In this document: one piece after another, positions 1-13,317 of the stretch
Layout of the letters: each line of letters begins with the position of its first letter
Position numbering within the stretch: the stretch's first letter is position 1
NCBI GenBank assembly: GCA_964354495.1
Contig: CAYHAA010000031.1
Location: 1-13,317 of the forward strand
DNA from: an uncultured archaeon
GTDB taxonomy: Archaea > Asgardarchaeota > Thorarchaeia > Thorarchaeales > Thorarchaeaceae
DNA: 13,317 bases
Direction of reading: 5' to 3'
Program-made: the position numbers and the translations under genes
Notes under the pieces: model-generated
Told to the model about the DNA's origin: nothing
Seen by the model: only the letters and a program-made list of their open reading frames with translations
Databases searched by the model: none

Positions 1-94
1 AGGGTGGCTCAACAGGAGAGGTAAAGAGCAAATTCTCTATGCTTCGGGCAACCTGTACGATTGCACCGCATTCCCCGCCGTCGAAGGCCCGTAC
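1..94. repeat. Dispersed repeat copy R1 (may continue left of the window); close homolog of 12793-12886
   Basis: AGGGTGGCTCAACAG...AAGAGCAA.TTCTC...GC.TCGGGCAACCTG(T)ACGATTGCACCGC.TTCCCC...GTCGAAGGCCCGTAC aligns end to end with 12793-12886; both are 94 nt. Confidence 0.9.
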
Positions 95-146
95 TGCCGC
101 TGGTCAAGAAACCCGATATAATGAGGACGAGTCTTGTGTAATCGTG

Positions 147-2027
147 CTATTCTTTGGATAAGAGATGAGTCTTGAAGAAATCAATGCGACCTGCAAGTTC
201 CCTTACTGCTTCATCTTTTCGGATAGTGACATGACCGGATTCAGGCTTTACATGAAGTTCAAGAGGATGATTACGAGAATACAGCCGGTTTGCAAACTCG
301 AGAACCGGAGGAAAGGGTGTACGACTATCATTTGAGGCAACGCTTATCGCCAGTGGAGCCTTGATATCATCGACTCTGCTTATCGGTGACCGTTCGAGCA
401 TCAGAGCTCGATTCTCATCAGGATTGCCCCACATTTCCTTGATGAACTCCTTGAATATGGCATCACCATGGTCAGCCATGTACGTCCAATCCGCTACAGG
501 AACAACAGCATACCCGGCAGCCCATCTCTCAGGTTGGAATGCTAGTCCTGCTAGGGTCATGAAACCACCATATGATGCACCAGTAATGCCTACTCTCTTT
601 GGATCGATGCCAAAATTCTTGACAATATAATCCACTCCAGAGCTGACATCCTGCAGATCTGCTCGCCCAGCCTCTTGAAATAGGGACTTGTTGAATGCCA
701 ATCCATAGCCCGTCGATCCTCTAAAGTTCGGTGCGAAGACTGCAAAACCTTCCTGTGTGAAGACCTGTAGAGTACCCAAGAAAAAGTCCGAGAAATGTGA
801 AGACGGCCCCCCATGGATCCATGCCAAACAAGGATAGCCTCCAATAGGTCTTGGTCTAGAGGGGAGTAGTAGAAATCCATGGATGGTGGTCCCATCAAAT
901 GAAGAATTGTATGAGATTGATTTAGACTCAACAACAGGGAATTCTTCCGTGTCTATTAGTTCGGACTGCCAACGGGTCACTTTCTTGTTTTGACCACTCA
1001 TGAGATTATGAGACCAAAGCTCTTCAGGCATTGCAGCATCAGAATGATTGTAGAACAATAGCTGTTTACCCTTGTTATCTCTTACATAGTATGGTGTGTT
1101 TGTACCTATAGGCAAATTCAGCAATTTCATTGTGTTTTCATCTATATCTATCTCATGAACTGTTGAGCGTCCATCTCTCATTGCTTGTTGGTAGAGCTTG
1201 TTTCCATCAGGACTCCAAATGCATTGTGCAAGTTCTCCTTCAGGTTGCGGAAGCTCTCTCAACTCTCCAGTTTCAGCGTTGTAGATTGATAACCTTCCAA
1301 AGTCACCCTTGGGCTGAAGCAACGGAACAAGAGGCCGTTTTGGATTCCATTGCTGCAGAAACCAGTAAGGGGGCAGAGTAGGTATCTCAGAGATTACTTC
1401 TGCAGTTCCGGGATTGAATATAACAAGAGCACCCTCTTGCCATCCTCCTGGGCGAGCACCTTGAGCAAAAGCAAGACTGGGATGACCCCATTCAACAAGG
1501 ACCGGAACCAACCTCGCAACGCATTCATCATCAAGAGCCGGTTCTGGAGTTGCCTTTAGGTCATTGGAGATCTTCGATACATGATGACCATCCTCGTACG
1601 ATCCGCAATAGATTACATTAGCTCCATCAGGCGACCAATCAAACCAGAGAAGGCGATGAGGCTCGATTTCTGAAAACACCAGTTCTTGTATATCATCTGA
1701 TTGCCTAAAGCCACGAAGAGTGTCAAATCGACATAGGTATGATTTCTCCGAACCGTCGGGGTCTGCTGCGGCCAGAGTGTACTTATCATCAGGTGAAAGA
1801 AGAGCAGGCAACGGAACGAACTTGACAGTACTAGGCAGTAGAGTCTCTTTCTTCGTAGGTCTTCTCAAAGAACTTCTTATGAGAGAGTAGCCTCCAGACT
1901 CAGCTAGCCTCTGGTATAAGAAGAGGTCCCCGCTTTTCGAGAAGTCTGTTGGAGTTGTAAAATATGTCGCTTCAAGTGCAATCTTTAGACGTTCATAGAT
2001 GGATATCAAATGATTCCCTCCTAACAT
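147..2027 (-). CDS. S9 family (prolyl oligopeptidase / acylaminoacyl-peptidase-like) serine peptidase, 626 aa
   Basis: C-terminal alpha/beta hydrolase with IHGGP, NFRGSTGYG, nucleophile elbow GASYGG, Asp in NDSRT and His in ESGH; N-terminal WSPDG-type beta-propeller repeats. Confidence 0.92.
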   Translation of the reverse strand: MLGGNHLISIYERLKIALEATYFTTPTDFSKSGDLFLYQRLAESGGYSLIRSSLRRPTKKETLLPSTVKFVPLPALLSPDDKYTLAAADPDGSEKSYLCRFDTLRGFRQSDDIQELVFSEIEPHRLLWFDWSPDGANVIYCGSYEDGHHVSKISNDLKATPEPALDDECVARLVPVLVEWGHPSLAFAQGARPGGWQEGALVIFNPGTAEVISEIPTLPPYWFLQQWNPKRPLVPLLQPKGDFGRLSIYNAETGELRELPQPEGELAQCIWSPDGNKLYQQAMRDGRSTVHEIDIDENTMKLLNLPIGTNTPYYVRDNKGKQLLFYNHSDAAMPEELWSHNLMSGQNKKVTRWQSELIDTEEFPVVESKSISYNSSFDGTTIHGFLLLPSRPRPIGGYPCLAWIHGGPSSHFSDFFLGTLQVFTQEGFAVFAPNFRGSTGYGLAFNKSLFQEAGRADLQDVSSGVDYIVKNFGIDPKRVGITGASYGGFMTLAGLAFQPERWAAGYAVVPVADWTYMADHGDAIFKEFIKEMWGNPDENRALMLERSPISRVDDIKAPLAISVASNDSRTPFPPVLEFANRLYSRNHPLELHVKPESGHVTIRKDEAVRELAGRIDFFKTHLLSKE

Positions 2028-2052
2028 GAGTAGACTAATTTAGTAGTGCTCC

Positions 2053-2064
2053 TGACATAAAACT
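2053..2064 (-). promoter_or_regulatory. Putative TATA-containing promoter (AGTTTTATGTCA on minus strand) for the peptidase; identical 12-mer at 3356-3367
   Basis: Exact 12-bp match between 2053-2064 and 3356-3367. The TTTTAT core lies ~30 nt upstream of the ATG at 2027, a spacing compatible with a leaderless or short-leader archaeal transcript. Confidence 0.5.
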
Positions 2065-2110
2065 TGTTCGATGAACATACCATCTGACAAGAAGTCTTAG
2101 TGAAAATGAG

Positions 2111-2174
2111 AGGGCGGCTCAACAGCGAACAGCAAGGGCAAGTCCCCTGATTACCTGACCCCGTCAGTCTGTAC
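2111..2174. repeat. Dispersed repeat copy R2 (internally deleted); homology to R3 extends left to ~2053
   Basis: AGGGCGGCTCAACAGCGAACAGCAAGGGCAAGT matches the first 33 nt of R4 with 2 mismatches, then ACCTGAC, CCCGTC and GTAC blocks occur in the same order as in R4. Preceded by an A-rich tract (TGAAAATGAG). Confidence 0.85.
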
Positions 2175-2179
2175 TCCGT

Positions 2180-2258
2180 ATCCATCTGAGATGGATGAAC
2201 ATTGAAGAATTGTTCATGGGAGTGGCGCAGTGGCTTTTGGGGACCACCTTCTGGTGGT
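2180..2258. other. Cluster of perfect short hairpins 3' of the minus-strand nuclease gene (possible terminator or RNA stability elements)
   Basis: ATCCATC-TGA-GATGGAT (2180-2196), ATGAACA-N9-TGTTCAT (2195-2217), ACCACC-TTCT-GGTGGT (2243-2258). Confidence 0.45.
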
Positions 2259-2295
2259 GGGTTCTTTATTCTCTAATAACTCACACTTGTTCCTG

Positions 2296-3306
2296 TCATG
2301 GTATTGAAAATGCTTTCTGCAATATTCCTTTTTCGATGCCTTTTGCTTTCTTACTTTTATAGCCAATGGTTTTATTCCGAAAGTATCTCATCATTATTTC
2401 CTTATCACTAGAAACCTCGCTCTCAGAGATATATTGGAATATGCTTTCCCATGTAACCCTTAGAAACTTCCTTCGCTGATTCTCCTTGATGTGCTTCCCA
2501 AAGATGGCCTCGATATCCGCCTCTCGTTTAGACCGCACCAGATTAATGAGATAGAAATCTACTTTCTGCTGATCTGCCATCCAAGTTCCAAGAATCCAGA
2601 ATCGTAATAATTCATACAGCCCCTCATTCACAACCTTTTCAAATTCGGAGTGAAAGACTTTGAAGAACCAATTCTCTCCACCAGTCAAGTATTTCTTTTT
2701 TCTTCTTGAAATGTAGGATGGGTCTTTCTTTGGGGGGTTCTTTTTGTTTGGAGCATCTAACTTTGCCTCAATGAAGAACAGTGCACGGTCAGTATGGATT
2801 ATAATATCCGGTTCTGAACCCTGAGATCTAGTTTCACCAAACTTGTCTCTTGCTGTATTCAGTGGCGACCAACCAGCATCTTCTTTCTGACTATATGACC
2901 AATAGATTACTTCAGAGGATTTAGGTGATGTGTTGGTTATAGAGCTCAACATTCTTTCGACAAGATTATTCTTCTCCAAGAATCTAAAAACATTCCAACA
3001 AACGGCATCTTCGCAATTGTCGTGTTCCATTCGACACCTTCTTTTAAAAACCTTAATTCTCTCTAATAACTCTAAGTCTAGCTGTTCTTTCCAGAGCAGA
3101 TTATCTGATACGTTCGGGTATTGAAAGGTTGAAGGGGAGATGACAATTCTGTCTCGGGGACACCTGAAATTCTCTCTAAATTCTTGGCCCTTTGTTTCAT
3201 TTGTCATTTTTTCAACAATTTCACTGCAACCTTTAACTGGACATTCAACTTTTGTGTCGGTAATTTCGATTTTTTCCTTCAATTCCTCTGCACCGAGCAT
3301 TTTCAA
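2296..3306 (-). CDS. PD-(D/E)xK putative restriction endonuclease (PGN_0703-like), 336 aa, with N-terminal Cys cluster
   Basis: SEPDIIIHTDRALFFIEAKL catalytic motif; upstream EDAVCWNVF motif resembles the PGN_0703 family; CPVKGC...CPRD possible Zn site; visibly more AT-rich than its neighbours. Start is TTG 3306 or ATG 3300. Confidence 0.7.
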   Translation of the reverse strand: MKMLGAEELKEKIEITDTKVECPVKGCSEIVEKMTNETKGQEFRENFRCPRDRIVISPSTFQYPNVSDNLLWKEQLDLELLERIKVFKRRCRMEHDNCEDAVCWNVFRFLEKNNLVERMLSSITNTSPKSSEVIYWSYSQKEDAGWSPLNTARDKFGETRSQGSEPDIIIHTDRALFFIEAKLDAPNKKNPPKKDPSYISRRKKKYLTGGENWFFKVFHSEFEKVVNEGLYELLRFWILGTWMADQQKVDFYLINLVRSKREADIEAIFGKHIKENQRRKFLRVTWESIFQYISESEVSSDKEIMMRYFRNKTIGYKSKKAKGIEKGILQKAFSIP

Positions 3307-3355
3307 CTCTTATCATTCCCTCCATGACATAAGCAGACCAGTTTAGTAATACCCT

Positions 3356-3367
3356 TGACATAAAACT
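3356..3367 (-). promoter_or_regulatory. Putative TATA-containing promoter, copy of 2053-2064
   Basis: Identical 12-mer TGACATAAAACT at a similar distance from the repeat core as in R2. Confidence 0.45.
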
Positions 3368-3412
3368 CGTTTGGCGAATATACTATCTGACTAAAAACTG
3401 TTGAAAAAGAAA

Positions 3413-3490
3413 AGAGTGGCTCAACAGCGAGCAGCAATAGACTGGTTTCAGAGAGGATAAACTCTGCGTTTCTTGGGTCGAAAACTCACT
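3413..3490. repeat. Dispersed repeat copy R3 (most diverged; right boundary approximate)
   Basis: AGAGTGGCTCAACAGCGAGCAGCAA matches R4 at 23/25; a distal GCGTT...GTCGAA block is retained; A-rich tract (TTGAAAAAGAAA) on the left as in R2 and R4. Confidence 0.75.
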
Positions 3491-3579
3491 TTGCAGCTGG
3501 AATTGCATTGATAACTCAAACGAACAACTTTCTTATTGAAAGGAAAGCCTCATTGTGATCATATCGTGGTGAAGGACTA

Positions 3580-4383
3580 ATGAACATTGATGAGTTCATA
3601 GAGAAACTAAAAGAGATCCGGGATTCTGGATTTGTCGAGTCCCACAGAGCGGGAGATACAGGAATTGGCAAAACTCTCGAAGATAAGTTAGAAATCAATG
3701 AGAACAATATAGCTGGTCCTGATTTTAGTGTTTACGAGTTAAAATCTGGCAGAAGGCAATCCAGTTCAATGATTACGCTTTTTACGAAAACGCCCGATCC
3801 TAAGGGAGCAACAAAGGAACTAGTAGACCATTTCGGTTACAAACATCGAAAGGGGTCTTCCAAAACAAGACAGGTGACTCTTGTTCATGTAGCTGAAGAA
3901 AGCGAATTCATTCCACTTGAAGACAAGGAGCTTCATGTCACTGTGGATGCACTCAGACCAAACAGCGTCGGATTGCAGCTTAAGTTCGTTGGAGATAGAT
4001 TGTACTTCAAGAATGACAAAGGTGTCATCGCTTACTATGACAGGGATGAGTTGGAGAAGACATTTGAGAAGAAGTACAAGAGCATGGTCTATGTCATAGC
4101 AGACTGCAAAAGCGACGGGAAGAGAGAGTCCTTTTGGTTTAACGAGGCATATAGACTTGATAGATTCGGTTTCTCAACATTCTCCAAATTAATCAAAGAT
4201 GGTCTTCTAAAGGTCGATTTACGTGTGGGACATTATCCAGATGGAAGAGTGCACGACCATGGGACTGGTTTCAGAATCTTACCTGTTCATTTTCCAAAAT
4301 GCTTCGAAGTGATTGAATGCATCCTGCCACTTGAAGAAGTATACCAAAAGGCAATCATTCCGGAACTGGATGGAAGAAACTGA
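3580..4383 (+). CDS. MvaI/BcnI family type II restriction endonuclease, 267 aa
   Basis: GDTGIGKTLED...NENN...PDF...ELKS.R...MITLFTKTP and C-terminal HDHGTGFRI are typical of this family; adjacent to a methyltransferase. Confidence 0.88.
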   Translation: MNIDEFIEKLKEIRDSGFVESHRAGDTGIGKTLEDKLEINENNIAGPDFSVYELKSGRRQSSSMITLFTKTPDPKGATKELVDHFGYKHRKGSSKTRQVTLVHVAEESEFIPLEDKELHVTVDALRPNSVGLQLKFVGDRLYFKNDKGVIAYYDRDELEKTFEKKYKSMVYVIADCKSDGKRESFWFNEAYRLDRFGFSTFSKLIKDGLLKVDLRVGHYPDGRVHDHGTGFRILPVHFPKCFEVIECILPLEEVYQKAIIPELDGRN

Positions 4384-4409
4384 ATCGAATATTCGCCCTA
4401 ATCTGTCAA

Positions 4410-5699
4410 TTAGACCTTTCGCAGAATAACTATGTGCTCATTGTGCATTGTATCAGCCTTGAACCCTTCGACATTCTCTGGCGCATTCTGCCAAGGCATC
4501 CTCTTGGTTGGGATATTCCGAGGGATTGTGCACTCATGGTCGAAACCTAGAACTGTGCCTAGCTCTGCTGTAATCTTGTCCGTTGGAATTCGCACCCGAG
4601 CCATCAGACGGTTGCCAATCACAATGCACGCATGTCCGTTTCTCTTCAACTTCTGATACATTGTTTCAATAGATTGATTGTAGTCAAAGAAGAAATTGAA
4701 AAACGCCTTCGCCCGTTTTGGGCTGTTCTTGCGTACTCTCTCATAGGTCTCATTCAGAGTCTTGCTTTCAAGAAGAGTCTCATCAAATTTCTTAGAATTA
4801 CTGCCACCAAGCCCTCGCCTGTCTACCGATTGCACCTGTTCATAGTCAAGTCCAATCCAATGCGCAGGATATCGTGAGAATTGCCCATATGCAACAGTAG
4901 TACTGTGATCACCGTATGGGGGAGATGTGACAATAAGGTCAATAGAACTGTCATCTATTGGGGCTTCTCTGTTGTCAGCATATATCACTCTCGACATACT
5001 ATAGTCTTCCGGCAGCGCCTTCACAAAGGGTGCCATCAGAGGGATGCATCTTCTGACATTGGCTCGGAAGACTTCATAGACATCAGGAGTGAACGACTTC
5101 TGCTCATCCTCCTTCATTCGAACAATCTTGAACTCTGCCTTCTTCAAGTTGGATGTCTCTCGTGCTGTGTGCGCTAGGCAGAGTCTAAAGAAGTCCCTGA
5201 CAGGTTCATCCTCAACTGACTCGATTGCTTTCTTGATGACTGCTAGGTCAGCCTGAACATATTCCTTGAACCAGAGATTTGCGTTATGCATCGCTGGAAT
5301 TTCGAGGGTACCATGTAACTGCTTTCTGACTGATGCTATCTTGTTACTAAGCCTCTCGCTTGCTCGACGAAGAACATCGTTATCAATTGGGGTCGTCTTG
5401 ACCTTTGAAAGGAATACTGCGAAAGGATTGAGATCAGTACCGACTGATGTTCTACCCGTGAGCATTGACTCAACGAGTATTGAACCAGAACCACAGAATG
5501 GGTCCCAAACCAAGTCATCCTTTTCTGAATAGCGCTCAATGAGCTTCCTCGCAACCTGAGGAATCATTCTGGCTGGGTATGGATGGAGACCGTGAGTCAT
5601 GTACTTCGTGTCTGCCCCTGCAAACGTCCAGTCCTCTACTGGTTCTTCCCTATTGTCAGGGTCGAAGTCAGGCAATCTACTCTGTTCCATCATTACCAT
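4410..5699 (-). CDS. DNA methyltransferase, probably N4-cytosine, alpha-class motif order (M.MvaI-like), 429 aa
   Basis: THGLHPYPARMIPQV, motif I DPFCGSG precedes motif IV TSPPY; convergent with the REase (26-nt gap). The target sequence cannot be read from this. Confidence 0.9.
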   Translation of the reverse strand: MVMMEQSRLPDFDPDNREEPVEDWTFAGADTKYMTHGLHPYPARMIPQVARKLIERYSEKDDLVWDPFCGSGSILVESMLTGRTSVGTDLNPFAVFLSKVKTTPIDNDVLRRASERLSNKIASVRKQLHGTLEIPAMHNANLWFKEYVQADLAVIKKAIESVEDEPVRDFFRLCLAHTARETSNLKKAEFKIVRMKEDEQKSFTPDVYEVFRANVRRCIPLMAPFVKALPEDYSMSRVIYADNREAPIDDSSIDLIVTSPPYGDHSTTVAYGQFSRYPAHWIGLDYEQVQSVDRRGLGGSNSKKFDETLLESKTLNETYERVRKNSPKRAKAFFNFFFDYNQSIETMYQKLKRNGHACIVIGNRLMARVRIPTDKITAELGTVLGFDHECTIPRNIPTKRMPWQNAPENVEGFKADTMHNEHIVILRKV

Positions 5700-5703
5700 T
5701 CTA

Positions 5704-5728
5704 TCTCCTGTTGTTAGCTGTTATATAT
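5704..5728 (-). promoter_or_regulatory. Putative TATA box and Shine-Dalgarno of the methyltransferase
   Basis: Minus strand ATATATAA (5728-5721), then AGGAGA (5709-5704), then ATG at 5699. Confidence 0.55.
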
Positions 5729-5773
5729 CCAGTCCTCAGTATCTCTGAGTGTATCCTGCTCATTGATTCCTTC

Positions 5774-6300
5774 AGAAACGTAGGAGGTGATCCCCGATCT
5801 GTTGGTAGGAAGAGAAGATGCCCTGCTTGTGCCCGTGCAGGGACGTCCGACCTGCTAAGTAACAGTCGAAACCTGGAACCCCTAGTCCGACCGCAGTTGG
5901 TGAGTGAAACTTCTCCACCTTCAACTTCCATGTTCAGCACTCCTCATGACTCCTGTCACCAGCAACCAGCAGGACCTCTCCAGCTGGGCGTGCATGAGTT
6001 TCGCTGTGCCTCATTGGAGCATGACTCCTCTTCACAGACTGAGCATCTGTCCGCTGCGCTGTATTATCATGGTCACCAGAACCCACGATGGCAGACGGCG
6101 TTTCCATGGTCTTTTCCATGGCTTGGTCGGTACTACTCGCAGACTCCTCAAGAGAGGTCTGGTCATAGCAGTCAGCCACGGTGCTCCCTACAAGCGAAGC
6201 TGGCAACTTCTTGGGAACTGAGGACATCCCTTTAGAACGAGCCCTCCGGGTCTTCGGGGAGGCCTTCCGTATTGGCGGAAGCCAAGTCCCTAGTCCTTCC
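5774..6300 (-). ncRNA. Putative TnpB omegaRNA (scaffold overlapping the 3' coding tail and trailer; candidate guide ~5793-5774); boundaries uncertain
   Basis: Position 3' of tnpB (established for TnpB omegaRNAs); hairpins such as CCCTGC-N10-GCAGGG near 5821-5842 and CTTCCG-N6-CGGAAG near 6265-6280; a ...GGGGATCAC end resembling IS605-type right ends. Inferred, not demonstrated. Confidence 0.45.
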
Positions 6301-7676
6301 TCACCCCTCAAGGAGGGAATGAGCCTAATCAAACGCAGACCGATGTTGATCGCTGCGTTCTTGTCCGCGTTATCGCGGTACCCACATGTGTGACAGAGGA
6401 AATAGCTCTGCTTTGGTCGATATCCTGTAGACCCACACTTGTGACACTTGATGCTGGTCCAAGCCTCCGGAACTGAAAACACCCTCTTGGGATTGAATCC
6501 ATTCAGACTGAGCTTGTGTTGGAGCGCGTTGGTGATGCGAGCAAAGGACCATCGGTTTATCAGCCCACGAAACCGGCTCCCCTTTCCATCACCCTTTCGT
6601 GCGCGATTACGGATTCCTTTTAGTTGCCCTATTGCGACAAAGAGATCATAGCGTTGCGCCAGTTCAAGAACGTGCTCGGAGAGCTGTTTCACGAGCTTCC
6701 CGTCATAGTCGAAACTGACATTCTCACGCTTAGAGCTCATTGCACGAAGGCGTTTCGTGACCTCATCTGTTGATTGAACATTCCTCAGACGGGTGTCGCG
6801 CTCCACCTGGAGGCTTGCCACCATCCCATCATAACGCTCAATCTGTTTCGCTTTTTCGCAGTCGGTCCAGAACCTGACCTGTCGAAAGCCGCTCTGAGTC
6901 AGTACAACAGAACAGACTGCCTTCTTTATCCCGAGGTCTATCCCTATCACTGCAGGGGGTCTTTGTTCAGGCTTGATCGAAGTGACATCGACCTTGACCT
7001 TGAAGACCACCCACCACTTTCGCTTCCTGTCCTTCACAATCTGAATGGACTTCCTCTCTCCCAGACTCAATTGGTTGAGATGATAAGAGGAAGGACTCAG
7101 AGGAATTGCCAGTCTATCGTGACGTACTCTTCCTTCTCTCACTGAGTCGAGAGCATCACGAAGGATGAGCCAGTGCTTGATCTCCTTGTCAGGAGTATAC
7201 ACAAACTCGAACATCCTCGTGAACATGTGACGAGGCAGCTTCCTCGAACTGTACCCCTTTGCCTGTAGGGGCTTGTTCCTACCTAGAGCGAGATACACCT
7301 TCCACATTGCAATGGCTGTCTCTCGGCACTCCTGGAGTTCATTTGTTGAGATGTTTGGGAATCGTTGTTTGAAGTCGTGAGGAACGTTCTTCGTATCAGT
7401 CCGCAGTGTCAGTTCGTCTAACTTTCCAGCATCGAGTTGTTTCTTGTTCGTTCCAGCAAGGAGGTTTCTCTCATGTTTCTCAATTACTCCCAGATAGGCC
7501 TTGATGACTCTGGTGTCCCTTCCTGTGATTCTGGACAGGCGTGTCTTCTGTCTCTCCGTCATCACATCCCATCGGACAGGGACTTTGACCGTCGTCATCA
7601 CGCCACTGGAGCGACCCATGAGATTCCGCCTCGCGTATATAAATTCCCGACCTGTTTCCGGTCGAGGGAGTTTCAC
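5934..7676 (-). CDS. tnpB: TnpB-family (IS200/IS605, solo IS1341-like) RNA-guided endonuclease with rearranged RuvC-II and long C-terminal tail; true start probably 7619 or 7598
   Basis: RuvC-I VIGIDLG, Zn ribbon CHKC...CHTC, RuvC-III NADKNAAINI. The canonical RuvC-II Glu position reads AIGQL, with an alternative Glu in VPEAWTS. TTTATATA at 7643-7636 lies inside the annotated N-terminus. No tnpA in the window. Confidence 0.88.
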   Translation of the reverse strand: MKLPRPETGREFIYARRNLMGRSSGVMTTVKVPVRWDVMTERQKTRLSRITGRDTRVIKAYLGVIEKHERNLLAGTNKKQLDAGKLDELTLRTDTKNVPHDFKQRFPNISTNELQECRETAIAMWKVYLALGRNKPLQAKGYSSRKLPRHMFTRMFEFVYTPDKEIKHWLILRDALDSVREGRVRHDRLAIPLSPSSYHLNQLSLGERKSIQIVKDRKRKWWVVFKVKVDVTSIKPEQRPPAVIGIDLGIKKAVCSVVLTQSGFRQVRFWTDCEKAKQIERYDGMVASLQVERDTRLRNVQSTDEVTKRLRAMSSKRENVSFDYDGKLVKQLSEHVLELAQRYDLFVAIGQLKGIRNRARKGDGKGSRFRGLINRWSFARITNALQHKLSLNGFNPKRVFSVPEAWTSIKCHKCGSTGYRPKQSYFLCHTCGYRDNADKNAAINIGLRLIRLIPSLRGEEGLGTWLPPIRKASPKTRRARSKGMSSVPKKLPASLVGSTVADCYDQTSLEESASSTDQAMEKTMETPSAIVGSGDHDNTAQRTDAQSVKRSHAPMRHSETHARPAGEVLLVAGDRSHEEC

Positions 7677-7856
7677 TCAACCTCTTTCTCCGGAGATTGA
7701 CTGATAACCTCCACACTTTATCTGATGCAGGGAAGTATATAAATTCATTAAACGTATTTCATATTATTGAGATATATTGTCCAATAGTAGGATATTGGGC
7801 AAAATAGAAAAGGGAATATCCCGCTACACTAGCACATTGCGTCTGGAGACGATTAA

Positions 7857-10800
7857 GTGTCATCCACGGAGCCAGCGGAGATCATAGTAAATGCACAGAT
7901 TCTTGGTCTTAGAGCTTTAGTTGATTTGCTGAGAGAACGAACAACCAAGGACACCCGATACTTACATACACTAGGACAGCAGCGTCTGCTATCAGCGCTA
8001 GAAGAGTGGCAACAGAGCATCGAGCACGGAAGCCCCAGGTTCAATGCGGTTGCAGAAGAAGAAAAACATCTTCGAGATTTCGAGCTTGAGAACATCTGGG
8101 AAACAACAAGTAGCTATGGTAACACTGAAACAAAACGTGTCAGAAGCGAGAGAGATGGAGTAGTAGGGCCTCTCAATAGACTCATCAACATCTTCGGAGG
8201 CGAGTTGAAAAATCACTTTCTTCTCCTGTATCCACTTGAAGCACCTGCTAGGATTGGCAGACAAAGGAGCAAGACAGTCTGGGGATATCAAAGTGAAGAA
8301 CTGGGTGATGTCCCTGTCGCTCATGGAGTAGACCTGCCTGAGCTTGATCTGGCGGATATGGTCCGATCTTTCGGTCGGGAACTGTGCCGGAAGTCGTTTA
8401 TCTTCGGGGCTCCTACAAATGCCTTTGATGCATACTGCTTTCTTCTCATTCGCCATCTTTCGTCATATGTAGACTATGTCTATACCAATGGCCGGTGCGG
8501 CAGTGCTCAGTTCCTGCGTTCGAAAACAAAGGCAGACAAGAAAGTAAAGGAGGACCCCTGTGCTGCTGAGGTCCTACGAGAGATTGTCGATGAACTAGGA
8601 AGTCTGTATGGTAGAGGGCCTACTCCTCTTTCATCACCATCAAGAATCCAAGAGAAGAGAGGGAAGCGTACAACAAAGAAGTTCTTCAAAGATCAGATTG
8701 AGAAGCTTCATAGACTAAGTAAAAAGAGACCGCAAGAGAAGAAGGAACTGCTGACATGGGCCAAGTTTCTCGAGACACTCACAGCCAGTAAGAAGCCAAA
8801 ACTACGAGATAGCGATGCTCAACACCTCTACGAGATTGTCCGGAATATTTCCAGATATGAAGGCGACAAATATCACAGATTTCTGACTGATGGATTGCCG
8901 CAGGTCTACAAAGCCGAATCAGTGATTTTACAGGGAGACCAATTCCTTCAACGGGGAGAAGACATCCTTATTGTCGGAGAATCCAAGATTCGGACCGATG
9001 AAGGATCTGGTCGAATAGACCTTGCAGTATACATAAGGACCGAGATACCTAACCCAAACCGACCTGGAAAAATAGCCGTCATGAGACCAATCGGAGTCTT
9101 TGAGATAAAATCACAGACCGGTTTCGACTGGGAGATTAGGACCAAGAAGACAAGAGGAAAAAAGAAGAAGACTGTTGTAAGGTTCATCGTGAGAAAGAGA
9201 GGGCTCACCGATGACGAATGGACTAATGCCCTTGCAGAGGTACCATCAAGAGGTGCAATTAGGCAGTTGAACCTCTACGCCTCTGGACTTGTCAGAGAAT
9301 ATAGAAGACTGACTGGAGATGAGACTGTCACGGATATTCTCAAAGGCGTCATTCTTGTTGACACACAGTTCGATGTAACTCTCAACAGAGAACTAGTGAT
9401 GTCTCTCCTGAAAGACGTCGCGAGTAGTCAGATTCTGAATGGCAAGGTTGGGAAAGGCAACCGATTGCTGATTCGGTCGAAGAGTTCAATGGCAAAGAGA
9501 GCGGCACTTGTGCTTCTGTCATCAGACAAAGGACAGGCTGAAGGGTTGAAGTCAGAGAGAAAAGCACTGGACTCTAAGGTCCTGTACAATCCCTTATCCA
9601 ATGTTGAAGGTGGTTCTTCACGACATATTATCTACCTGAGTGCAAGGTCTGCATCTAACTCCGGTTTCACTTCTGCATGGATTGCGCGATACTGGCACGG
9701 AATGCAGTATCTTCAACAACTGAGTGAGGACCATGGGAACAGACCAGTCGTATGGCTAGACCTTACTGGTGATTTTAGTGATAGCAACCTCGCGAAAGTT
9801 CGACTCAGAATGCAGCACCAAGACGCTGCGACAGAAACCTTCTTCGATAACATCAGGTTTATCGACCTCTCAGCCAATGTTGAGGGATTCTTATTCAGGG
9901 GAACAAATCCGCCAAATATACCAGCGCTTGGCAAGTGGCAGGACAAGATTGTGGTCGTGAGTGGGTGGGAACGGATCGAGAAGTCGACGCCGCCTCGATT
10001 GAAAAGCGCACTAGCTGAACTTGAGAGATACCTAGTCCAGGAGATGCATCGTACCGGATGCCCATCTGTCTGGTTTCTCGAGCCAAGACCCGACGAGAGG
10101 ACCTCGGAGATATATCACACAAGGTGCTTGATTCCCTTTTGGTCTTCTTCTCCTCATCAACAATATGTCACAGATGTTGTCTGGAATCTTCCGATTCGTC
10201 CGTACACATCAGTTCAGACCACTCCAATGCTTGATGACCTTCGAGTTATTGTCTACCAGACAAAAGATACTATCAAGACTGAGGCGATTGAGTTTCCACT
10301 CCTGAGGGACTGGTCTTCAAGGTTCTGGAGCAAGCGTAGCAAGAGAAAGACTTCGAAGGTGCGCAGCAAAGAGAGCAAGGGGAGAGTTGCGCTCACTCCG
10401 CAAGACGTGCTAGGCAGTGCTCAGCTCTCGAAAGACCTTATCTTTGATTCCATAGACCTCATTCCCTGGCTTCGAGACCTCTGGCATCAAGACTTTGCGA
10501 GGACACCAAATGACATCCGTCAGGATGTCCGATTCGATACTACAACCCTGTATGGTAATCCATCACCACGGTCAGGTGTCATGTCGCGAATGATGTATCG
10601 TGCCAAGATCAAAGGTACACGAGGAAAAAGGGGCTATATGACCTCTCAGCAACTGATTCCTAAGGAATCAATCACTCATCCAAGACACTACAGAAGATAT
10701 CGCCGCATCCAGAGAAATACTCTGAATACACAGAGCTACAGCGCACCAGATGAGAGACTTCTCGAGTTCAGACAATTCAGGGAGCAGACTGCTCAAAATG

Positions 10801-12749
10801 TGGAGGTCAGGCGTCTGAGGCAGACCCTGACTCTTCTATCGAAATGGAAGGAACCATGGACATCAGAATCAGCGTGGCAAGAGTTTCTCAAACAGCTGAA
10901 GCAGGTGGTTCCAAAAGAAGGGGTTCTTGTTCAGATTGGTGACATCAACGAGATCTCAGAATTGCTGAGGAACGATGACATCTCATCCAGTTTCTGGAGC
11001 TCTCTGCTATGGACTCGAGAGGGAAGACTTGGAAGTCATCTACGGTTGTGCGAGCAAGACCATCTGAGGGATCTTCTTGAGACTAATCCCCACGTGACCA
11101 CCTCCTTTGGCAACTATCTTTTCCTCCTCCTGCTTGCAGTCTCCAGAAAATACCCCGAACTGACTATTGAACAGATGCAACATCTCTGGGAGCCCGTGAA
11201 GGCATGGCATCTTCGTCAGGTCGGATTCTACCTGAGAAAGACGCAGGGGGAGCGCATTGAACCGAAGTTCGATGTCAGAGCTGTCTGGTCAAATCTATGC
11301 AAGAGAGCCACAACATTGATCAAGATGTCATTGCCGGTCCAGTCAGCTGTTCGATATGGACAACTGCTGATTGCCCCATATGGCGATGATTATGACTACT
11401 GGGTATTCATAGAGGACAGGTTCGACAAGAGCCGGTTTCAATCGGGACTTATCATCGGTCAGAATCCCTTTGCATCATCGACATTCATGAGATGGACAGA
11501 GATGGACAATCATGAGATTGCACTCCATGCGAAGTCTGTTGTAGCTGAAGAAGTCTACGACCTACTTGTGAGCAACGTCAGTGGAATCGAGTGTGTCTGG
11601 CTCTTAGCTGAGGGAGAATGGAATCTTCAGGGCGAGCTGGTCATAATTCCTCGCAAGAGGTCAGCAATAACCAGTATCAGAGGCATGCAAATCAAGCCGC
11701 TGGTAGCTGACCGAATTCCTGAAGTGCCGTTTGGTGTGAGAATGCCTCCTAGAATCAAACAACGAGTCAGAGAGGATCTCTCTCAGATTGCTCGTCTGCG
11801 TCAGAGCATCCTGAGTGTTCAGTGTGCTCTTGGGATCGACTCCGGTATGTACGCAGTCCGCTTTGAGGAGGGGCGAGAACAGATTGACATGAGAGTTGTG
11901 TATAGGACTTCGGATCTCTTACACATCCTCCGCATGCCTCTTGTGGAGGGCATTCCGTTACAGAGTTCACAAGATTCAGATGTGTATCTGACATGGAATC
12001 CGTACGAGGACATCGACTATGGCGAACTCCAGCTCTTTCGACCGTATGTGGAGAGGAAGACCCCATATGTGCATGTTCGGGTGCCACTTCCAATGACAAG
12101 TAGAGAACTTCTTGAACGACCTCCTGCAGAAGTGGAGATTATCATCTTTCATGATGAGAGCGAGTGCCCCATCGTTGATGGTAACGCTTCTGCTCATGGG
12201 TCCTGTTGGAGAGTGAAGGCTGAGGGCGAGCAGGAGAGTCCCCGCTTTGATGCGTTGACCGACCATGCCCTCTCAGACCATGATATCTCCAGTCTGATTG
12301 TTTCAGGGGAGGTCTTTCTTGAGGAGGGCAGATACAAGCTCAACATCACCTTTGACAGCAGTCCAAGTGCAAGAGAGGGCATTGTCTTCAGAGAGAGTAG
12401 ATTGATTGCACGAGCGCTTGGCTTGAAGTCAGTCACACCGGGTGTCTTTCTTGAGCTTGACACGGAGCAGCTGAAGTATGTACTCACCAACTATGGCGAT
12501 GGTATTGCAATGGGCATCTACTCATCTCTCACTGAAGAGAGGATCAGCTCGTTCAATCTCATCCCCCAGGGAAGATGGCAAATTGATGAGGTCATGGAGG
12601 GATTCATCGATGAAACGGAGGAGTTCATCGAGTCGTATTTCGGTAAGGGAGAGAGACCTGAGAAACGCATTATCGACTACGATGAGATACTTGAAGAAAC
12701 ACAAGACCTATTGAAGAGAATAAAGAAAGGACTACCTCCACTTAGATAG
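7857..12749 (+). CDS. Large uncharacterised protein, 1630 aa, with a PD-(D/E)xK nuclease domain and a possible degenerate P-loop/RecA-like domain
   Basis: Uninterrupted 4.9-kb ORF; GESKI...GRIDLAVY...VFEIKS...QLNLY matches E...D...ExK...QxxxY. IIYLSARSASNSGFTS / VVWLDLTG / IVVVSGWE follow the spacing of Walker A, the next strand and Walker B but lack GKT and DE. Confidence 0.75.
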   Translation: MSSTEPAEIIVNAQILGLRALVDLLRERTTKDTRYLHTLGQQRLLSALEEWQQSIEHGSPRFNAVAEEEKHLRDFELENIWETTSSYGNTETKRVRSERDGVVGPLNRLINIFGGELKNHFLLLYPLEAPARIGRQRSKTVWGYQSEELGDVPVAHGVDLPELDLADMVRSFGRELCRKSFIFGAPTNAFDAYCFLLIRHLSSYVDYVYTNGRCGSAQFLRSKTKADKKVKEDPCAAEVLREIVDELGSLYGRGPTPLSSPSRIQEKRGKRTTKKFFKDQIEKLHRLSKKRPQEKKELLTWAKFLETLTASKKPKLRDSDAQHLYEIVRNISRYEGDKYHRFLTDGLPQVYKAESVILQGDQFLQRGEDILIVGESKIRTDEGSGRIDLAVYIRTEIPNPNRPGKIAVMRPIGVFEIKSQTGFDWEIRTKKTRGKKKKTVVRFIVRKRGLTDDEWTNALAEVPSRGAIRQLNLYASGLVREYRRLTGDETVTDILKGVILVDTQFDVTLNRELVMSLLKDVASSQILNGKVGKGNRLLIRSKSSMAKRAALVLLSSDKGQAEGLKSERKALDSKVLYNPLSNVEGGSSRHIIYLSARSASNSGFTSAWIARYWHGMQYLQQLSEDHGNRPVVWLDLTGDFSDSNLAKVRLRMQHQDAATETFFDNIRFIDLSANVEGFLFRGTNPPNIPALGKWQDKIVVVSGWERIEKSTPPRLKSALAELERYLVQEMHRTGCPSVWFLEPRPDERTSEIYHTRCLIPFWSSSPHQQYVTDVVWNLPIRPYTSVQTTPMLDDLRVIVYQTKDTIKTEAIEFPLLRDWSSRFWSKRSKRKTSKVRSKESKGRVALTPQDVLGSAQLSKDLIFDSIDLIPWLRDLWHQDFARTPNDIRQDVRFDTTTLYGNPSPRSGVMSRMMYRAKIKGTRGKRGYMTSQQLIPKESITHPRHYRRYRRIQRNTLNTQSYSAPDERLLEFRQFREQTAQNVEVRRLRQTLTLLSKWKEPWTSESAWQEFLKQLKQVVPKEGVLVQIGDINEISELLRNDDISSSFWSSLLWTREGRLGSHLRLCEQDHLRDLLETNPHVTTSFGNYLFLLLLAVSRKYPELTIEQMQHLWEPVKAWHLRQVGFYLRKTQGERIEPKFDVRAVWSNLCKRATTLIKMSLPVQSAVRYGQLLIAPYGDDYDYWVFIEDRFDKSRFQSGLIIGQNPFASSTFMRWTEMDNHEIALHAKSVVAEEVYDLLVSNVSGIECVWLLAEGEWNLQGELVIIPRKRSAITSIRGMQIKPLVADRIPEVPFGVRMPPRIKQRVREDLSQIARLRQSILSVQCALGIDSGMYAVRFEEGREQIDMRVVYRTSDLLHILRMPLVEGIPLQSSQDSDVYLTWNPYEDIDYGELQLFRPYVERKTPYVHVRVPLPMTSRELLERPPAEVEIIIFHDESECPIVDGNASAHGSCWRVKAEGEQESPRFDALTDHALSDHDISSLIVSGEVFLEEGRYKLNITFDSSPSAREGIVFRESRLIARALGLKSVTPGVFLELDTEQLKYVLTNYGDGIAMGIYSSLTEERISSFNLIPQGRWQIDEVMEGFIDETEEFIESYFGKGERPEKRIIDYDEILEETQDLLKRIKKGLPPLR

Positions 12750-12773
12750 CAGACAGCATTTCTATTGATTAGA

Positions 12774-12792
12774 CAATGAATGAAAAATGAAA
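12774..12792 (-). terminator. Putative oligo-T terminator after R4 (analogous tracts at ~2101-2110 and ~3401-3412)
   Basis: Minus strand TTTCATTTTTCATTCATTG directly after the repeat core; T-rich tracts are the known archaeal intrinsic terminator type. Confidence 0.45.
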
Positions 12793-12886
12793 AGGGTGGC
12801 TCAACAGCGAACAGCAAGAGCAAGTTCTCCACTTTGGCATCGGGCAACCTGACGATTGCACCGCGTTCCCCGTCGAAGGCCCGTAC
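12793..12886. repeat. Dispersed repeat copy R4, in the 16S rRNA 3' trailer
   Basis: 94-nt homolog of 1-94, ending 64 nt beyond the 16S 3' end; followed on the minus strand by a T-rich tract. Confidence 0.9.
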
Positions 12887-12889
12887 CTC

Positions 12890-12945
12890 TCTTGCATTCC
12901 CGAAGGACTGCAAGACCAAGCTGCTTCTACCTCTATGAGATAGAA
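12890..12945 (-). other. Two hairpins in the 16S 3' trailer
   Basis: UUCUAUCUC-AUA-GAGGUAGAA (12945-12925) and UCUUGCAGUCC-UUCG-GGAAUGCAAGA (12915-12890, C(UUCG)G tetraloop, one G/A mismatch). Confidence 0.6.
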
Positions 12946-12959
12946 AACATAGGAGGTGA

Positions 12960-12990
12960 ATGATGGAAGACGAGATGACTCTCGACTTCT
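12960..12990 (-). other. 16S micro-intron I4, 31 nt, after A1531 (E. coli numbering), just 5' of the anti-SD core
   Basis: Central helix GAUG/CAUC, bulges GA^A and AU^U, intron stem GAAG-U-CGAGA / UCUCG-U-CUUC; predicted cuts give GGAUCACCUCCU exactly. The outer exon helix is minimal. Confidence 0.88.
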
Positions 12991-13022
12991 TCCATCCGCA
13001 GCTTCCGCTACGGATACCTTGT

Positions 13023-13052
13023 ATTTCGCCGCGCCACGAAGTGTAACGCAGT
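13023..13052 (-). other. 16S micro-intron I3, 30 nt, after A1499
   Basis: Central helix GUCG/CGAA (3 pairs plus G.A), bulges UA^A and AU^A, intron stem CUGCGU/GCGCGG; removal gives GUCGUAACAAGG. The boundary can slide by 2 nt; this register is the best BHB fit. Confidence 0.8.
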
Positions 13053-13155
13053 TACGACTTCTCCCCACTTGCCGTCCCAAGATTCGTGGTCGCCCAGTGG
13101 ACGACACCTCACCCAAGAACAGCTCGCGTGGAGCGACGGGCGGTGTGTGCAAGAA

Positions 13156-13185
13156 TTCCCCGGAGGCGCGAAAATCGCACCCCCA
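13156..13185 (-). other. 16S micro-intron I2, 30 nt, after ~C1386
   Basis: Central helix CCCU/GGGG, bulges GC^U and AA^U, 10-bp intron stem GGGGGUGCGA/UCGCGCCUCC; removal gives GUCCCUGCUUCUUGCAC (canonical length). Confidence 0.85.
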
Positions 13186-13232
13186 GCAGGGACGTATTCT
13201 CCGCGCGATAGTGACACGCGGATACTAGGGAT

Positions 13233-13262
13233 ATCCTGATGCGCATCGAAGTGGTGCGCAAA
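13233..13262 (-). other. 16S micro-intron I1, 30 nt, after A1339
   Basis: Central helix CCUG/CAGG, bulges GA^U and AU^A, intron stem UGCGCA/UGCGCA behind a U.U mismatch; removal gives CUGGAAUCCCUAG. Confidence 0.88.
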
Positions 13263-13317
13263 TCCAGGTTCACGCGGGTGAGTTCCAACCCGCGATCCCG
13301 ACTACGACTGGGTTTCG

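Follow-up and report, generated by a model that had tools for sequence, protein, structure and literature searches.

Copies of the 16S rRNA trailer at gene-module junctions in a Thorarchaeota archaeon

Introduction

How do unrelated blocks of genes come to stand in a row, each bounded by the same repeat, beside the only 16S rRNA gene of an archaeon? The question is raised by the window analysed here, a stretch of 13,317 nucleotides that is the whole of contig C31 in a metagenome-assembled genome of a Thorarchaeota (Asgard) archaeon. This genome (G000; other genomes of the genus are labelled G0xx) amounts to 3.3 Mb in 51 contigs, is 97.7 % complete with 3.8 % contamination and has a single 16S rRNA gene. 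The original prediction, made from the sequence alone, was of an integron-like array of mostly defence cassettes, delimited by a repeat that is not attC and assembled by a recombinase encoded elsewhere.

Two important questions are (i) what the repeat is and (ii) what kind of process could have gathered modules between its copies. The first can be answered directly: the repeat is the 3′ flank of the 16S transcription unit, that is, the trailer strand of the pre-16S leader–trailer helix, ending in an oligo-T terminator. For the second, we lean slightly towards a process that does without an integrase. The array sample used throughout consists of about 100 repeat copies fetched from 20 genomes of the genus. 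None of the public sequencing runs holds more than 15 % of the window's words; contigs of four runs, from related or other populations, were compared, and the parts of the window that these contigs leave uncovered carry no meaning.

The repeat and the 16S transcription unit

The repeat copies and the 16S rRNA gene lie on the window as follows.

1..94, minus strand: R1, displaced 16S-trailer copy, its T-run lost at the contig start (80 % identity to 12793-12886)
1-15, minus strand: core of R1, AGGGTGGCTCAACAG (repeat comparison)
2100..2202, minus strand: R2, complete short-type trailer with T-run at 2100-2110 and core at 2111-2125 (repeat comparison)
3400..3440, minus strand: R3, T-run, core AGAGTGGCTCAACAG (3413-3427) and ~13 nt of arm (repeat comparison)
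12776..12950, minus strand: R4, working 16S trailer (repeat comparison and leader complementarity)
12778-12792, minus strand: T-run of R4 (repeat comparison)
12793-12807, minus strand: core of R4, base of the processing helix (leader complementarity)
~12866-12886, minus strand: inner box of R4, complementary to the leader (leader complementarity)
12887-12950, minus strand: proximal trailer of R4 with two small hairpins, 64 nt (sequence)
12951..13317, minus strand: 3′ part of the 16S rRNA gene, truncated by the contig end (Rfam match and 16S comparison)
12951-12959, minus strand: complement of the anti-Shine-Dalgarno sequence (16S comparison)
12960-12990, minus strand: 31-nt palindromic insert (against the archaeal model)
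13023-13052, minus strand: 30-nt insert in the helix 44/45 linker (against the archaeal model)
~13150-13250, minus strand: insert of ~71 nt, 5′ of the linker insert (against the archaeal model)

The four copies in one orientation are real, as judged by sequence comparison and by a profile of 102 cores, and the extent first given for R1 (1-94, cut by the contig start) stands. R2, placed earlier at 2111-2174, occupies 2100-2202, and R3 is clear only at 3400-3440; the adjoining 3441-3492 is a degenerate remnant at best. The fourth copy had been described as a separate element lying 64 nt from the rRNA. The unit is instead continuous from 12776 to the 16S 3′ end at 12951, passing from the T-run through a 94-nt stretch and the 64-nt proximal trailer without a break, and elsewhere it runs on into helix 45.

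Support for identifying the unit as a trailer comes from the 16S leader on contig C15, which contains GGCTCAACAG and CCCCGTTAAGCCTGTAC (rRNA sense), the complements of the trailer's CTGTTGAGCC and GTACGGGCCTTCGACGGGG. Pairing of leader and trailer runs from the core to the inner box, and the extended complementarity is kept across four species: the duplexes of G000, G012, G017 and G005 reach -72 to -77 kcal/mol, with z = -6.7 to -8.4 relative to shuffled trailers. Duplex folding of long leader and trailer flanks was uninformative and became informative once restricted to the boxes. Some copies also reach into the gene itself. On contig C30, the copies at 6-188, 2044-2200 and 8577-8815 extend into the 16S, up to the equivalent of 13014-13028 (helix 45), and the last 50–80 nt of the 16S are included in four G000 and G012 copies and in nine from other genomes. 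Each direct repeat reproduces the 3′ part of a stable-RNA gene, and one of them belongs to the intact gene; R4 is the working trailer and the remaining copies are displaced duplicates that mark module junctions. What was taken for a free-standing recombination element is the processing-stem strand and terminator of the rRNA operon. Rfam finds only the 16S gene in the window, and nothing in the tail of contig C17 or in C30; the repeat is therefore no known RNA family.

Archaeal pre-rRNA processing stems are formed by leader–trailer inverted repeats around the 16S and are single-copy. The array repeat is the trailer strand of such a helix, and R4 is correctly placed to act as one. Here, however, the trailer strand is repeated some 17 times without a leader partner, at gene-module junctions.

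In ~40 % of copies there is a second, semi-conserved box, (A)GA(G/A)TCCACT(C/G)A (TCCACTCA-like), ~30–45 nt to the left of the core (for example at L002:1056-1067), often directly after the stop codon of a plus-strand gene. It is complementary, by eye, to the leader's AGAATTCCCTCA, and therefore the processing helix may extend past the T-run.

Layout of the array

The prediction called for a search leftwards of the contig, and 13 more copies were found by BLAST of 12701-13317 against the genome and by a core scan: five in the last 9 kb of C17 and eight on C30 (seven cores and one copy at the contig start). In the whole of G000, the profile built from 102 cores yields 15 matches at E<0.3, all on C17, C30 and C31 and all on one strand, with no copy elsewhere in the 3.3 Mb at this threshold. 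A core regular-expression scan allowing up to two mismatches returned the same copies, chance matches and the 16S leader. Copies scattered genome-wide, as expected of a miniature inverted-repeat transposable element (MITE) or a generic terminator family, were thus not found; the copies are not spread in both orientations, all 15 profile matches fall at one locus on one strand, and we reject such a family.

The end of C17 and the start of C30 are identical over an exact 55-nt overlap. C30 stops exactly where a core should begin and C31 starts inside a core, and a join between these two contigs is probable. In the sister genome G012, a 120-kb contig spans the locus, from genes syntenic with C15 through the 16S gene, 12 copies over ~15 kb and an MBL-fold hydrolase to the genes of C17; the order in G000 is therefore C17, C30, C31, 16S, C15. 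Assembled in this way from contig comparison, the G000 array would measure ~35 kb and hold ~17 repeats and modules, between the single 16S gene and conserved chromosomal genes.

Could the array be an artefact of mixed-strain assembly, or a generic terminator or MITE family with no biological array behind it? All three contigs break inside repeats, and the genome is metagenome-assembled with some contamination, which would fit such an artefact. Single long contigs nevertheless hold whole arrays beside the 16S gene, both in G012 (120 kb, 12 copies) and in G017, where a 243-kb contig carries seven copies adjoining the gene, and no copy occurs elsewhere in G000. This explanation was tested, is not supported and can practically be discounted.

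Within the genus, 21 of 24 other genomes contain the element; among 16 genomes from other genera of the phylum, none does.

Modules and their turnover

Array modules measure 0.3–9 kb and hold one to four genes in either orientation. The following are present in the window, identified by family search unless stated otherwise.

147..2027, minus strand: S9 (prolyl-oligopeptidase-family) serine peptidase, 626 aa; module 1
2024..2093, minus strand: promoter-like stretch and first codons of the peptidase gene (repeat comparison)
2296..3306, minus strand: REase-ARP-family nuclease, 336 aa; module 2
3580-4383, plus strand: MvaI/BcnI-family endonuclease; module 3 part a, type II restriction-modification pair (3580..5699)
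4410-5699, minus strand: N4/N6 DNA methyltransferase, partner in the same pair; module 3 part a
5934..7676, minus strand: TnpB/Cas12f-like gene, 580 aa; module 3 part b
7857..12749, plus strand: 1630-aa protein without Pfam or PADLOC match; module 3 part c

Other modules, on C17 and C30, encode four VapC proteins, ParE, a GNAT protein, an S-adenosylmethionine (SAM) methyltransferase, an MFS protein, two BNR proteins, an LVIVD protein and a DUF11 protein. The description of the cargo as mostly defence holds for about half of it: toxin–antitoxin (TA), restriction-modification and nuclease modules fit, and the peptidase, MFS, SAM methyltransferase, GNAT, BNR, LVIVD and surface-protein genes do not. 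Nor does the 1630-aa protein show a nuclease signature by Pfam or PADLOC, and its earlier label of giant nuclease has to be dropped.

Comparison across the genus indicates that modules are gained, lost and re-ordered between species, so that the proposal of a cassette array anchored at the 16S 3′ flank is borne out: copies lie at one locus, and the content and order of the modules between them vary among relatives rather than being fixed. The GNAT/ParE module has a different right-hand neighbour at its end in each of G000, G012, G002 and G021, and the LVIVD module stands at a different place in G000 than in G012. The S9 peptidase has no close orthologue in 27 other genus genomes (best 34 % identity), and the REase-ARP nuclease is found in three of these, in one of which (G016) it again adjoins a trailer copy.

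Close relatives of the 1630-aa protein are likewise present in three of the 27. Paralogues of 1400–1900 aa form a large family in the genus, with at least eight members in G000, and the protein is one of them; no usable match was returned by the protein atlas. Its closest relatives (54–55 %), at G015:C131:25960-30825 and G007:C339:6-3635, also adjoin the 16S trailer, and short remnants of its C-terminus lie directly left of cores in G002, G006, G009 and G042. We considered 1-12793 of the window as a recent insertion, based on its absence from G012. However, a relative of the giant gene also stands beside the trailer in G015 and in G007, so the difference may reflect a gain in G000 or a loss in G012.

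The TnpB gene is one of 16 TnpB matches in G000. In contigs from a related population (run X2), the restriction-modification pair and the giant gene are present and joined across 6426 to 7799, with most of the TnpB gene unmatched; the TnpB gene is therefore probably a later, secondary insertion-sequence (IS) insertion into module 3.

A 70-nt stretch is shared upstream of modules 1 and 2 (2024-2093 and 3327-3396, 77 % identity), and no further copy of it was found in G000 or in the fetched arrays. Both minus-strand genes (upstream regions 2010-2093 and 3310-3396) share a TATA-like TTTTATG and the first codons. The common ATG lies at 3330 in the nuclease gene, where a stop follows after five codons, leaving the start uncertain (TTG at 3306 in the list of open reading frames).

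Switch points and arm ends

Only positions -10 to +17 relative to the core (TGAAAAATGA-AAAGGGTGGCTCAACAG) are conserved genus-wide in the array sample; the arms beyond are species-typical. This conserved end of ~27 bp consists of the T-run plus GGCTCAACAG. The location of exchanges was mapped with copies that share the left flank of one copy (B) and the right flank of another copy (C) from a different genome, following the informative sites between. The B-to-C switch falls within -10 to +27, +2 to +15, -7 to +17, +2 to +7, +2 to +17 and -12 to +18. These six intervals, which stem from few independent events, lie at or overlap the core and place the change of neighbour inside the ~27-bp conserved end. 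In the contigs of the four public runs, many different left-hand contexts are joined at 12776-12793, and the points at which they leave the repeat on the right side are variable.

Arms are sharply bounded at the near end, by the T-run, and have ragged but non-random far ends. At least 15 arms of the short type end in a small hairpin, CCATCTGAGATGG, 6–20 nt beyond the 16S end, and at least nine independent arms in seven genomes end within 12 nt of one another in the 5′ strand of helix 45; none goes deeper into the 16S. R2 contains the hairpin CCATCTGAGATGG and terminates where the 16S 3′ end would begin. Most arms resemble the working trailer of their own host. In G017, the first 45 nt of the displaced arms are 87–100 % identical to it (six of six), and one displaced copy in G000 is 98 % identical to the working trailer over 239 nt, helix 45 included. 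Some arms are of foreign type, among them R1 and R2: in R1, the ~25 nt directly after the core are of a type found in other species (GGAGAGGTAAAG), the remainder being host-like, and R2 resembles the working trailers of G017 and G005.

The 16S 3′ end shows a related pattern. Three inserts interrupt it relative to the archaeal model, and all three may be mini-introns. Deletion of the 31-nt palindrome gives back the canonical GGAUCACCUCCU end, and neither this insert nor the 30-nt one is found in 16S contigs of other populations or in the working 16S genes of G017 and G005. Helix 45 is included in 12 displaced copies, and in every one of these a palindromic insert of 29–31 nt precedes the anti-Shine-Dalgarno sequence. 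The working 16S genes of G000 and G015 have it, and those of G012 and G017 lack it, although their displaced copies have it; the 3′ end of the working gene would therefore itself have been exchanged over time. An apparent exchange of this end, with or without the 31-nt insert, along with modules matters for 16S-based typing of these organisms.

Two explanations draw on these arm ends. Classical integrative elements (integrase-encoding plasmids or viruses) could have entered serially at helix 45 or in the 16S trailer, each bringing a replacement 3′ end, and later have decayed to remnants of cargo. The tight clustering of nine or more arm starts at the 5′ strand of helix 45 would fit, since this stem-loop is comparable to the sublocations (anticodon, T-loop) used by tRNA-targeting integrases (Williams 2002, cited in 10.1101/2020.12.28.424599), and so would the working 16S ends that differ between sister genomes as though swapped. 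Insertions beside a single 16S gene have also been reported in Heimdallarchaeum (PMC8813620). However, array stretches of the genus contain no integrase gene or match (~100 junctions, 20 genomes), modules are as small as 0.3–9 kb with one to four genes, most arms stop before the 16S gene and the mapped switches lie at the terminator end rather than at helix 45. We consider serial insertion of such elements quite improbable.

The displaced copies could also be reverse-transcribed 3′ fragments of pre-16S RNA, with the transcript 3′ end as the fixed end and structures or processing sites setting the variable 5′ ends. This would agree with a fixed end at the terminator and with ragged ends that gather at three places, namely the trailer hairpin, the 3′ end of the mature 16S and a point immediately 3′ of the 30-nt insert in the linker. 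An RNA origin is difficult to reconcile with modules that have genes in both orientations, their own promoters and multi-gene restriction-modification systems. No reverse transcriptase was detected in G000, and a further array, on a protein gene (see below), ends at a stop codon and not at a transcript end. A reverse-transcription origin thus appears highly improbable.

Comparison with integrons and integrase-built islands

Is the array an integron? Integrons are recognised by IntI, a tyrosine recombinase with an insertion of its own, by attC sites whose RYYYAAC and GTTRRRY boxes form an imperfect inverted repeat and fold into a hairpin of 57–141 nt, and by cassettes that mostly share one orientation, lack promoters and are transcribed from a common one. 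Family searches of G000 give no match to TIGR02249 or to the tyrosine recombinase family PF00589, and all 14 control genomes match. PF00589 has no match in 20 of the 28 genus genomes, G000 and G012 among them; the other eight have tyrosine-recombinase matches, which are found away from the array contig except in G015, where they share it without adjoining the copies. The Pfam-scanned array proteins of G000 include no recombinase domain, and family searches of this genome for Cas1, Y1 transposase and reverse transcriptase were negative. The only recombinase-family genes in G000 encode two 201-aa serine recombinases, at C22:1317-1724 and C24:10937-11335; both are IS607-like, one is 2.3 kb from a TnpB gene and neither is in or near an array.

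The repeat itself points the same way. An RYYYAAC-like box is present in 85 of 100 copies, four of 100 have any GTTRRRY 45–140 nt away and none of 100 has a complementary one, confirming the unpaired box noted at the outset. The repeat unit folds no better than shuffled sequence (z +1.4 to -2.7), and the core lacks dyad symmetry by eye. The box counts and folding scores rule out reading the repeat as a structured RNA or as attC, the latter in accord with the original view. Gene orientation in the array is mixed (~60:40), some modules contain two to four genes and a promoter-like stretch precedes minus-strand genes. With no IntI or other tyrosine recombinase, no attC hairpin and mixed gene orientation, the array is not an integron.

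The likeness to integrons, and to the clusters of attC sites without integrase known as CALINs, is nonetheless clear. Integrons and CALINs have been found in Archaea and are enriched in Asgard (PMC9668308). Like them, the array has ordered small modules separated by one repeated site, with order and content that vary among relatives; TA, GNAT and methyltransferase genes are among the cargo and, as in CALINs, no recombinase lies beside the array. It differs from them in having no IntI, in a repeat that has no R″/R′ inverted boxes and folds no better than shuffled sequence, in that this repeat is a functional part of the rRNA operon and in genes that point both ways with their own promoters.

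A strict integron-like system could still operate if a dedicated recombinase, whose gene could lie at another genomic locus or on a helper element, recognised the ~27-bp core, excised circles and inserted them at any copy of the core. The core is nearly invariant in the ~100 displaced copies of 20 species, with divergence setting in beyond +17. Conserved sequence flanks the switch point on both sides (T-run on the left, GGCTCAACAG on the right), the switch intervals overlap at about +2 to +7 and the module content (TA pairs, GNAT, methyltransferases, restriction-modification) is typical of chromosomal integrons. Against such a system stand the recombinase searches described above, with no tyrosine recombinase in G000, G012 and 18 further genus genomes and only the two IS607-type serine recombinases away from the array. 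The core without dyad symmetry, the unit without a hairpin beyond chance and the ragged rather than exact far ends of the arms also count against it. A further array in the same genome, described next, has the same build and uses a quite different repeat, and one sequence-specific enzyme would not serve both. On balance, a dedicated recombinase of this kind is unlikely, though it has to be taken seriously.

Tandem islands at tRNA and tmRNA genes offer another parallel. In Prochlorococcus, tycheposons build tandem accreted islands at tRNA and tmRNA 3′ ends (10.1101/2020.12.28.424599). As in the present array, the direct repeats copy the 3′ part of a stable-RNA gene, older insertions are displaced outward as new ones arrive at the same site, and accessory or defence cargo and remnants lie between partial gene copies. 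The target here is instead the 16S rRNA 3′ end with its trailer, and no tyrosine or large serine recombinase, whole or fragmentary, is found in or near the arrays (in most genus genomes, anywhere). The units here comprise one to four genes, exchange maps to the repeat's terminator end rather than to the interior of the gene, and the far ends of the repeat are ragged.

Within the Asgard archaea, the flank of a single 16S gene is a landing site for foreign DNA in Ca. Heimdallarchaeum as well, where HeimM2 (8 kb) and HeimV2 (44 kb) are inserted between the single 16S gene and tRNA-Arg (PMC8813620). Both are single elements that encode their own means of mobility (a homing-endonuclease-like gene, viral genes), and the same text describes no array of repeated 16S ends. 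We found no published array of repeated 16S ends without an integrase; term look-ups in 10.1101/2020.12.28.424599, PMC9668308, PMC8813620 and PMC11529989 turned up no description of one.

A second array and a proposed integrase-free process

At 101275-110015 of G000 contig C10 (locus L056), the 3′ end of a carboxyltransferase (PF01039) gene is present five times. The copies range from 87 to ~1050 nt, and the stop codon is the terminus of every one. The stretches that separate them hold AbiEi/AbiEii, Fic/DOC and unknown genes, and the end of the contig falls within the fifth copy. Such an array, in G000 as well, argues against one att-specific recombinase and in favour of a mechanism that works by homology or is of an undescribed kind. 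With nothing but two IS607-like serine recombinases found in a genome of this completeness, the proposal that a recombinase encoded elsewhere built the 16S array is not supported.

Further same-strand direct-repeat clusters were observed at C10:2000-32600 (~8 units) and C3:84818-95527 (four units of 50–100 nt); ARAGORN finds no tRNA gene in either.

Targets as different as a 16S trailer and the 3′ end of a protein gene would be hard for one sequence-specific recombinase to serve, and we therefore favour, with somewhat better than even confidence, an integrase-free process in which insertions duplicate the resident 3′ end and modules are then exchanged by recombination at the repeats. An insertion would duplicate part of the resident trailer or 16S end. 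One side of the duplicate would coincide exactly with the terminator, where the gene functionally ends, and the opposite side would be ragged and fall within a hairpin, either the small trailer hairpin or helix 45. Modules carrying such arms would then be excised, re-inserted and exchanged between genomes through recombination in the conserved, core-proximal 20–50 bp. Host homologous recombination on the repeats would be the simplest means, requiring no integrase, and crossovers further in could swap the working 16S 3′ end itself.

Several points weigh against this process. Crossovers cluster in ~25 bp even where ~100 nt of 90 % identical arm are shared (case C17|12341); plain homologous recombination would be expected to spread them more widely, few independent events being behind the clustering. 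An exact end common to ~100 different modules looks more like an enzyme site than like passive homology, and so does a core that is invariant in displaced copies without rRNA function. Arms of foreign type indicate that some arms are not duplicates of the resident trailer. The first acquisition of an arm by a new gene is left unexplained, and no circular or empty-site junction was seen in the data, which are contigs of related populations and cannot show such junctions.

It is conceivable that Thorarchaeota possess an undescribed form of DNA capture at the 3′ ends of transcription units (16S, tRNAs and some protein genes), with long target duplications that have one end at a terminator or stop codon and the other at hairpins, and with modules shuffled at a short conserved site. 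We put this forward tentatively, as a suggestion that is on the whole less probable than not. Such capture may do the work of an integron without an integrase, driven either by a recombinase of a new type or by breaks that are linked to transcription termination or to R-loops.

Implications

Experimental handles are offered by the 27-bp core at which neighbours switch and by the two hairpin hot spots at which duplicated arms end. If the reading given here is true, the end of an rRNA gene, and even that of a protein gene, is usable as a gene-capture site like those known for tRNA genes. Asgard archaea are the closest known relatives of eukaryotes, and if the system is active and integrase-free, these arrays would be a main route by which they take up and reshuffle accessory and defence genes.

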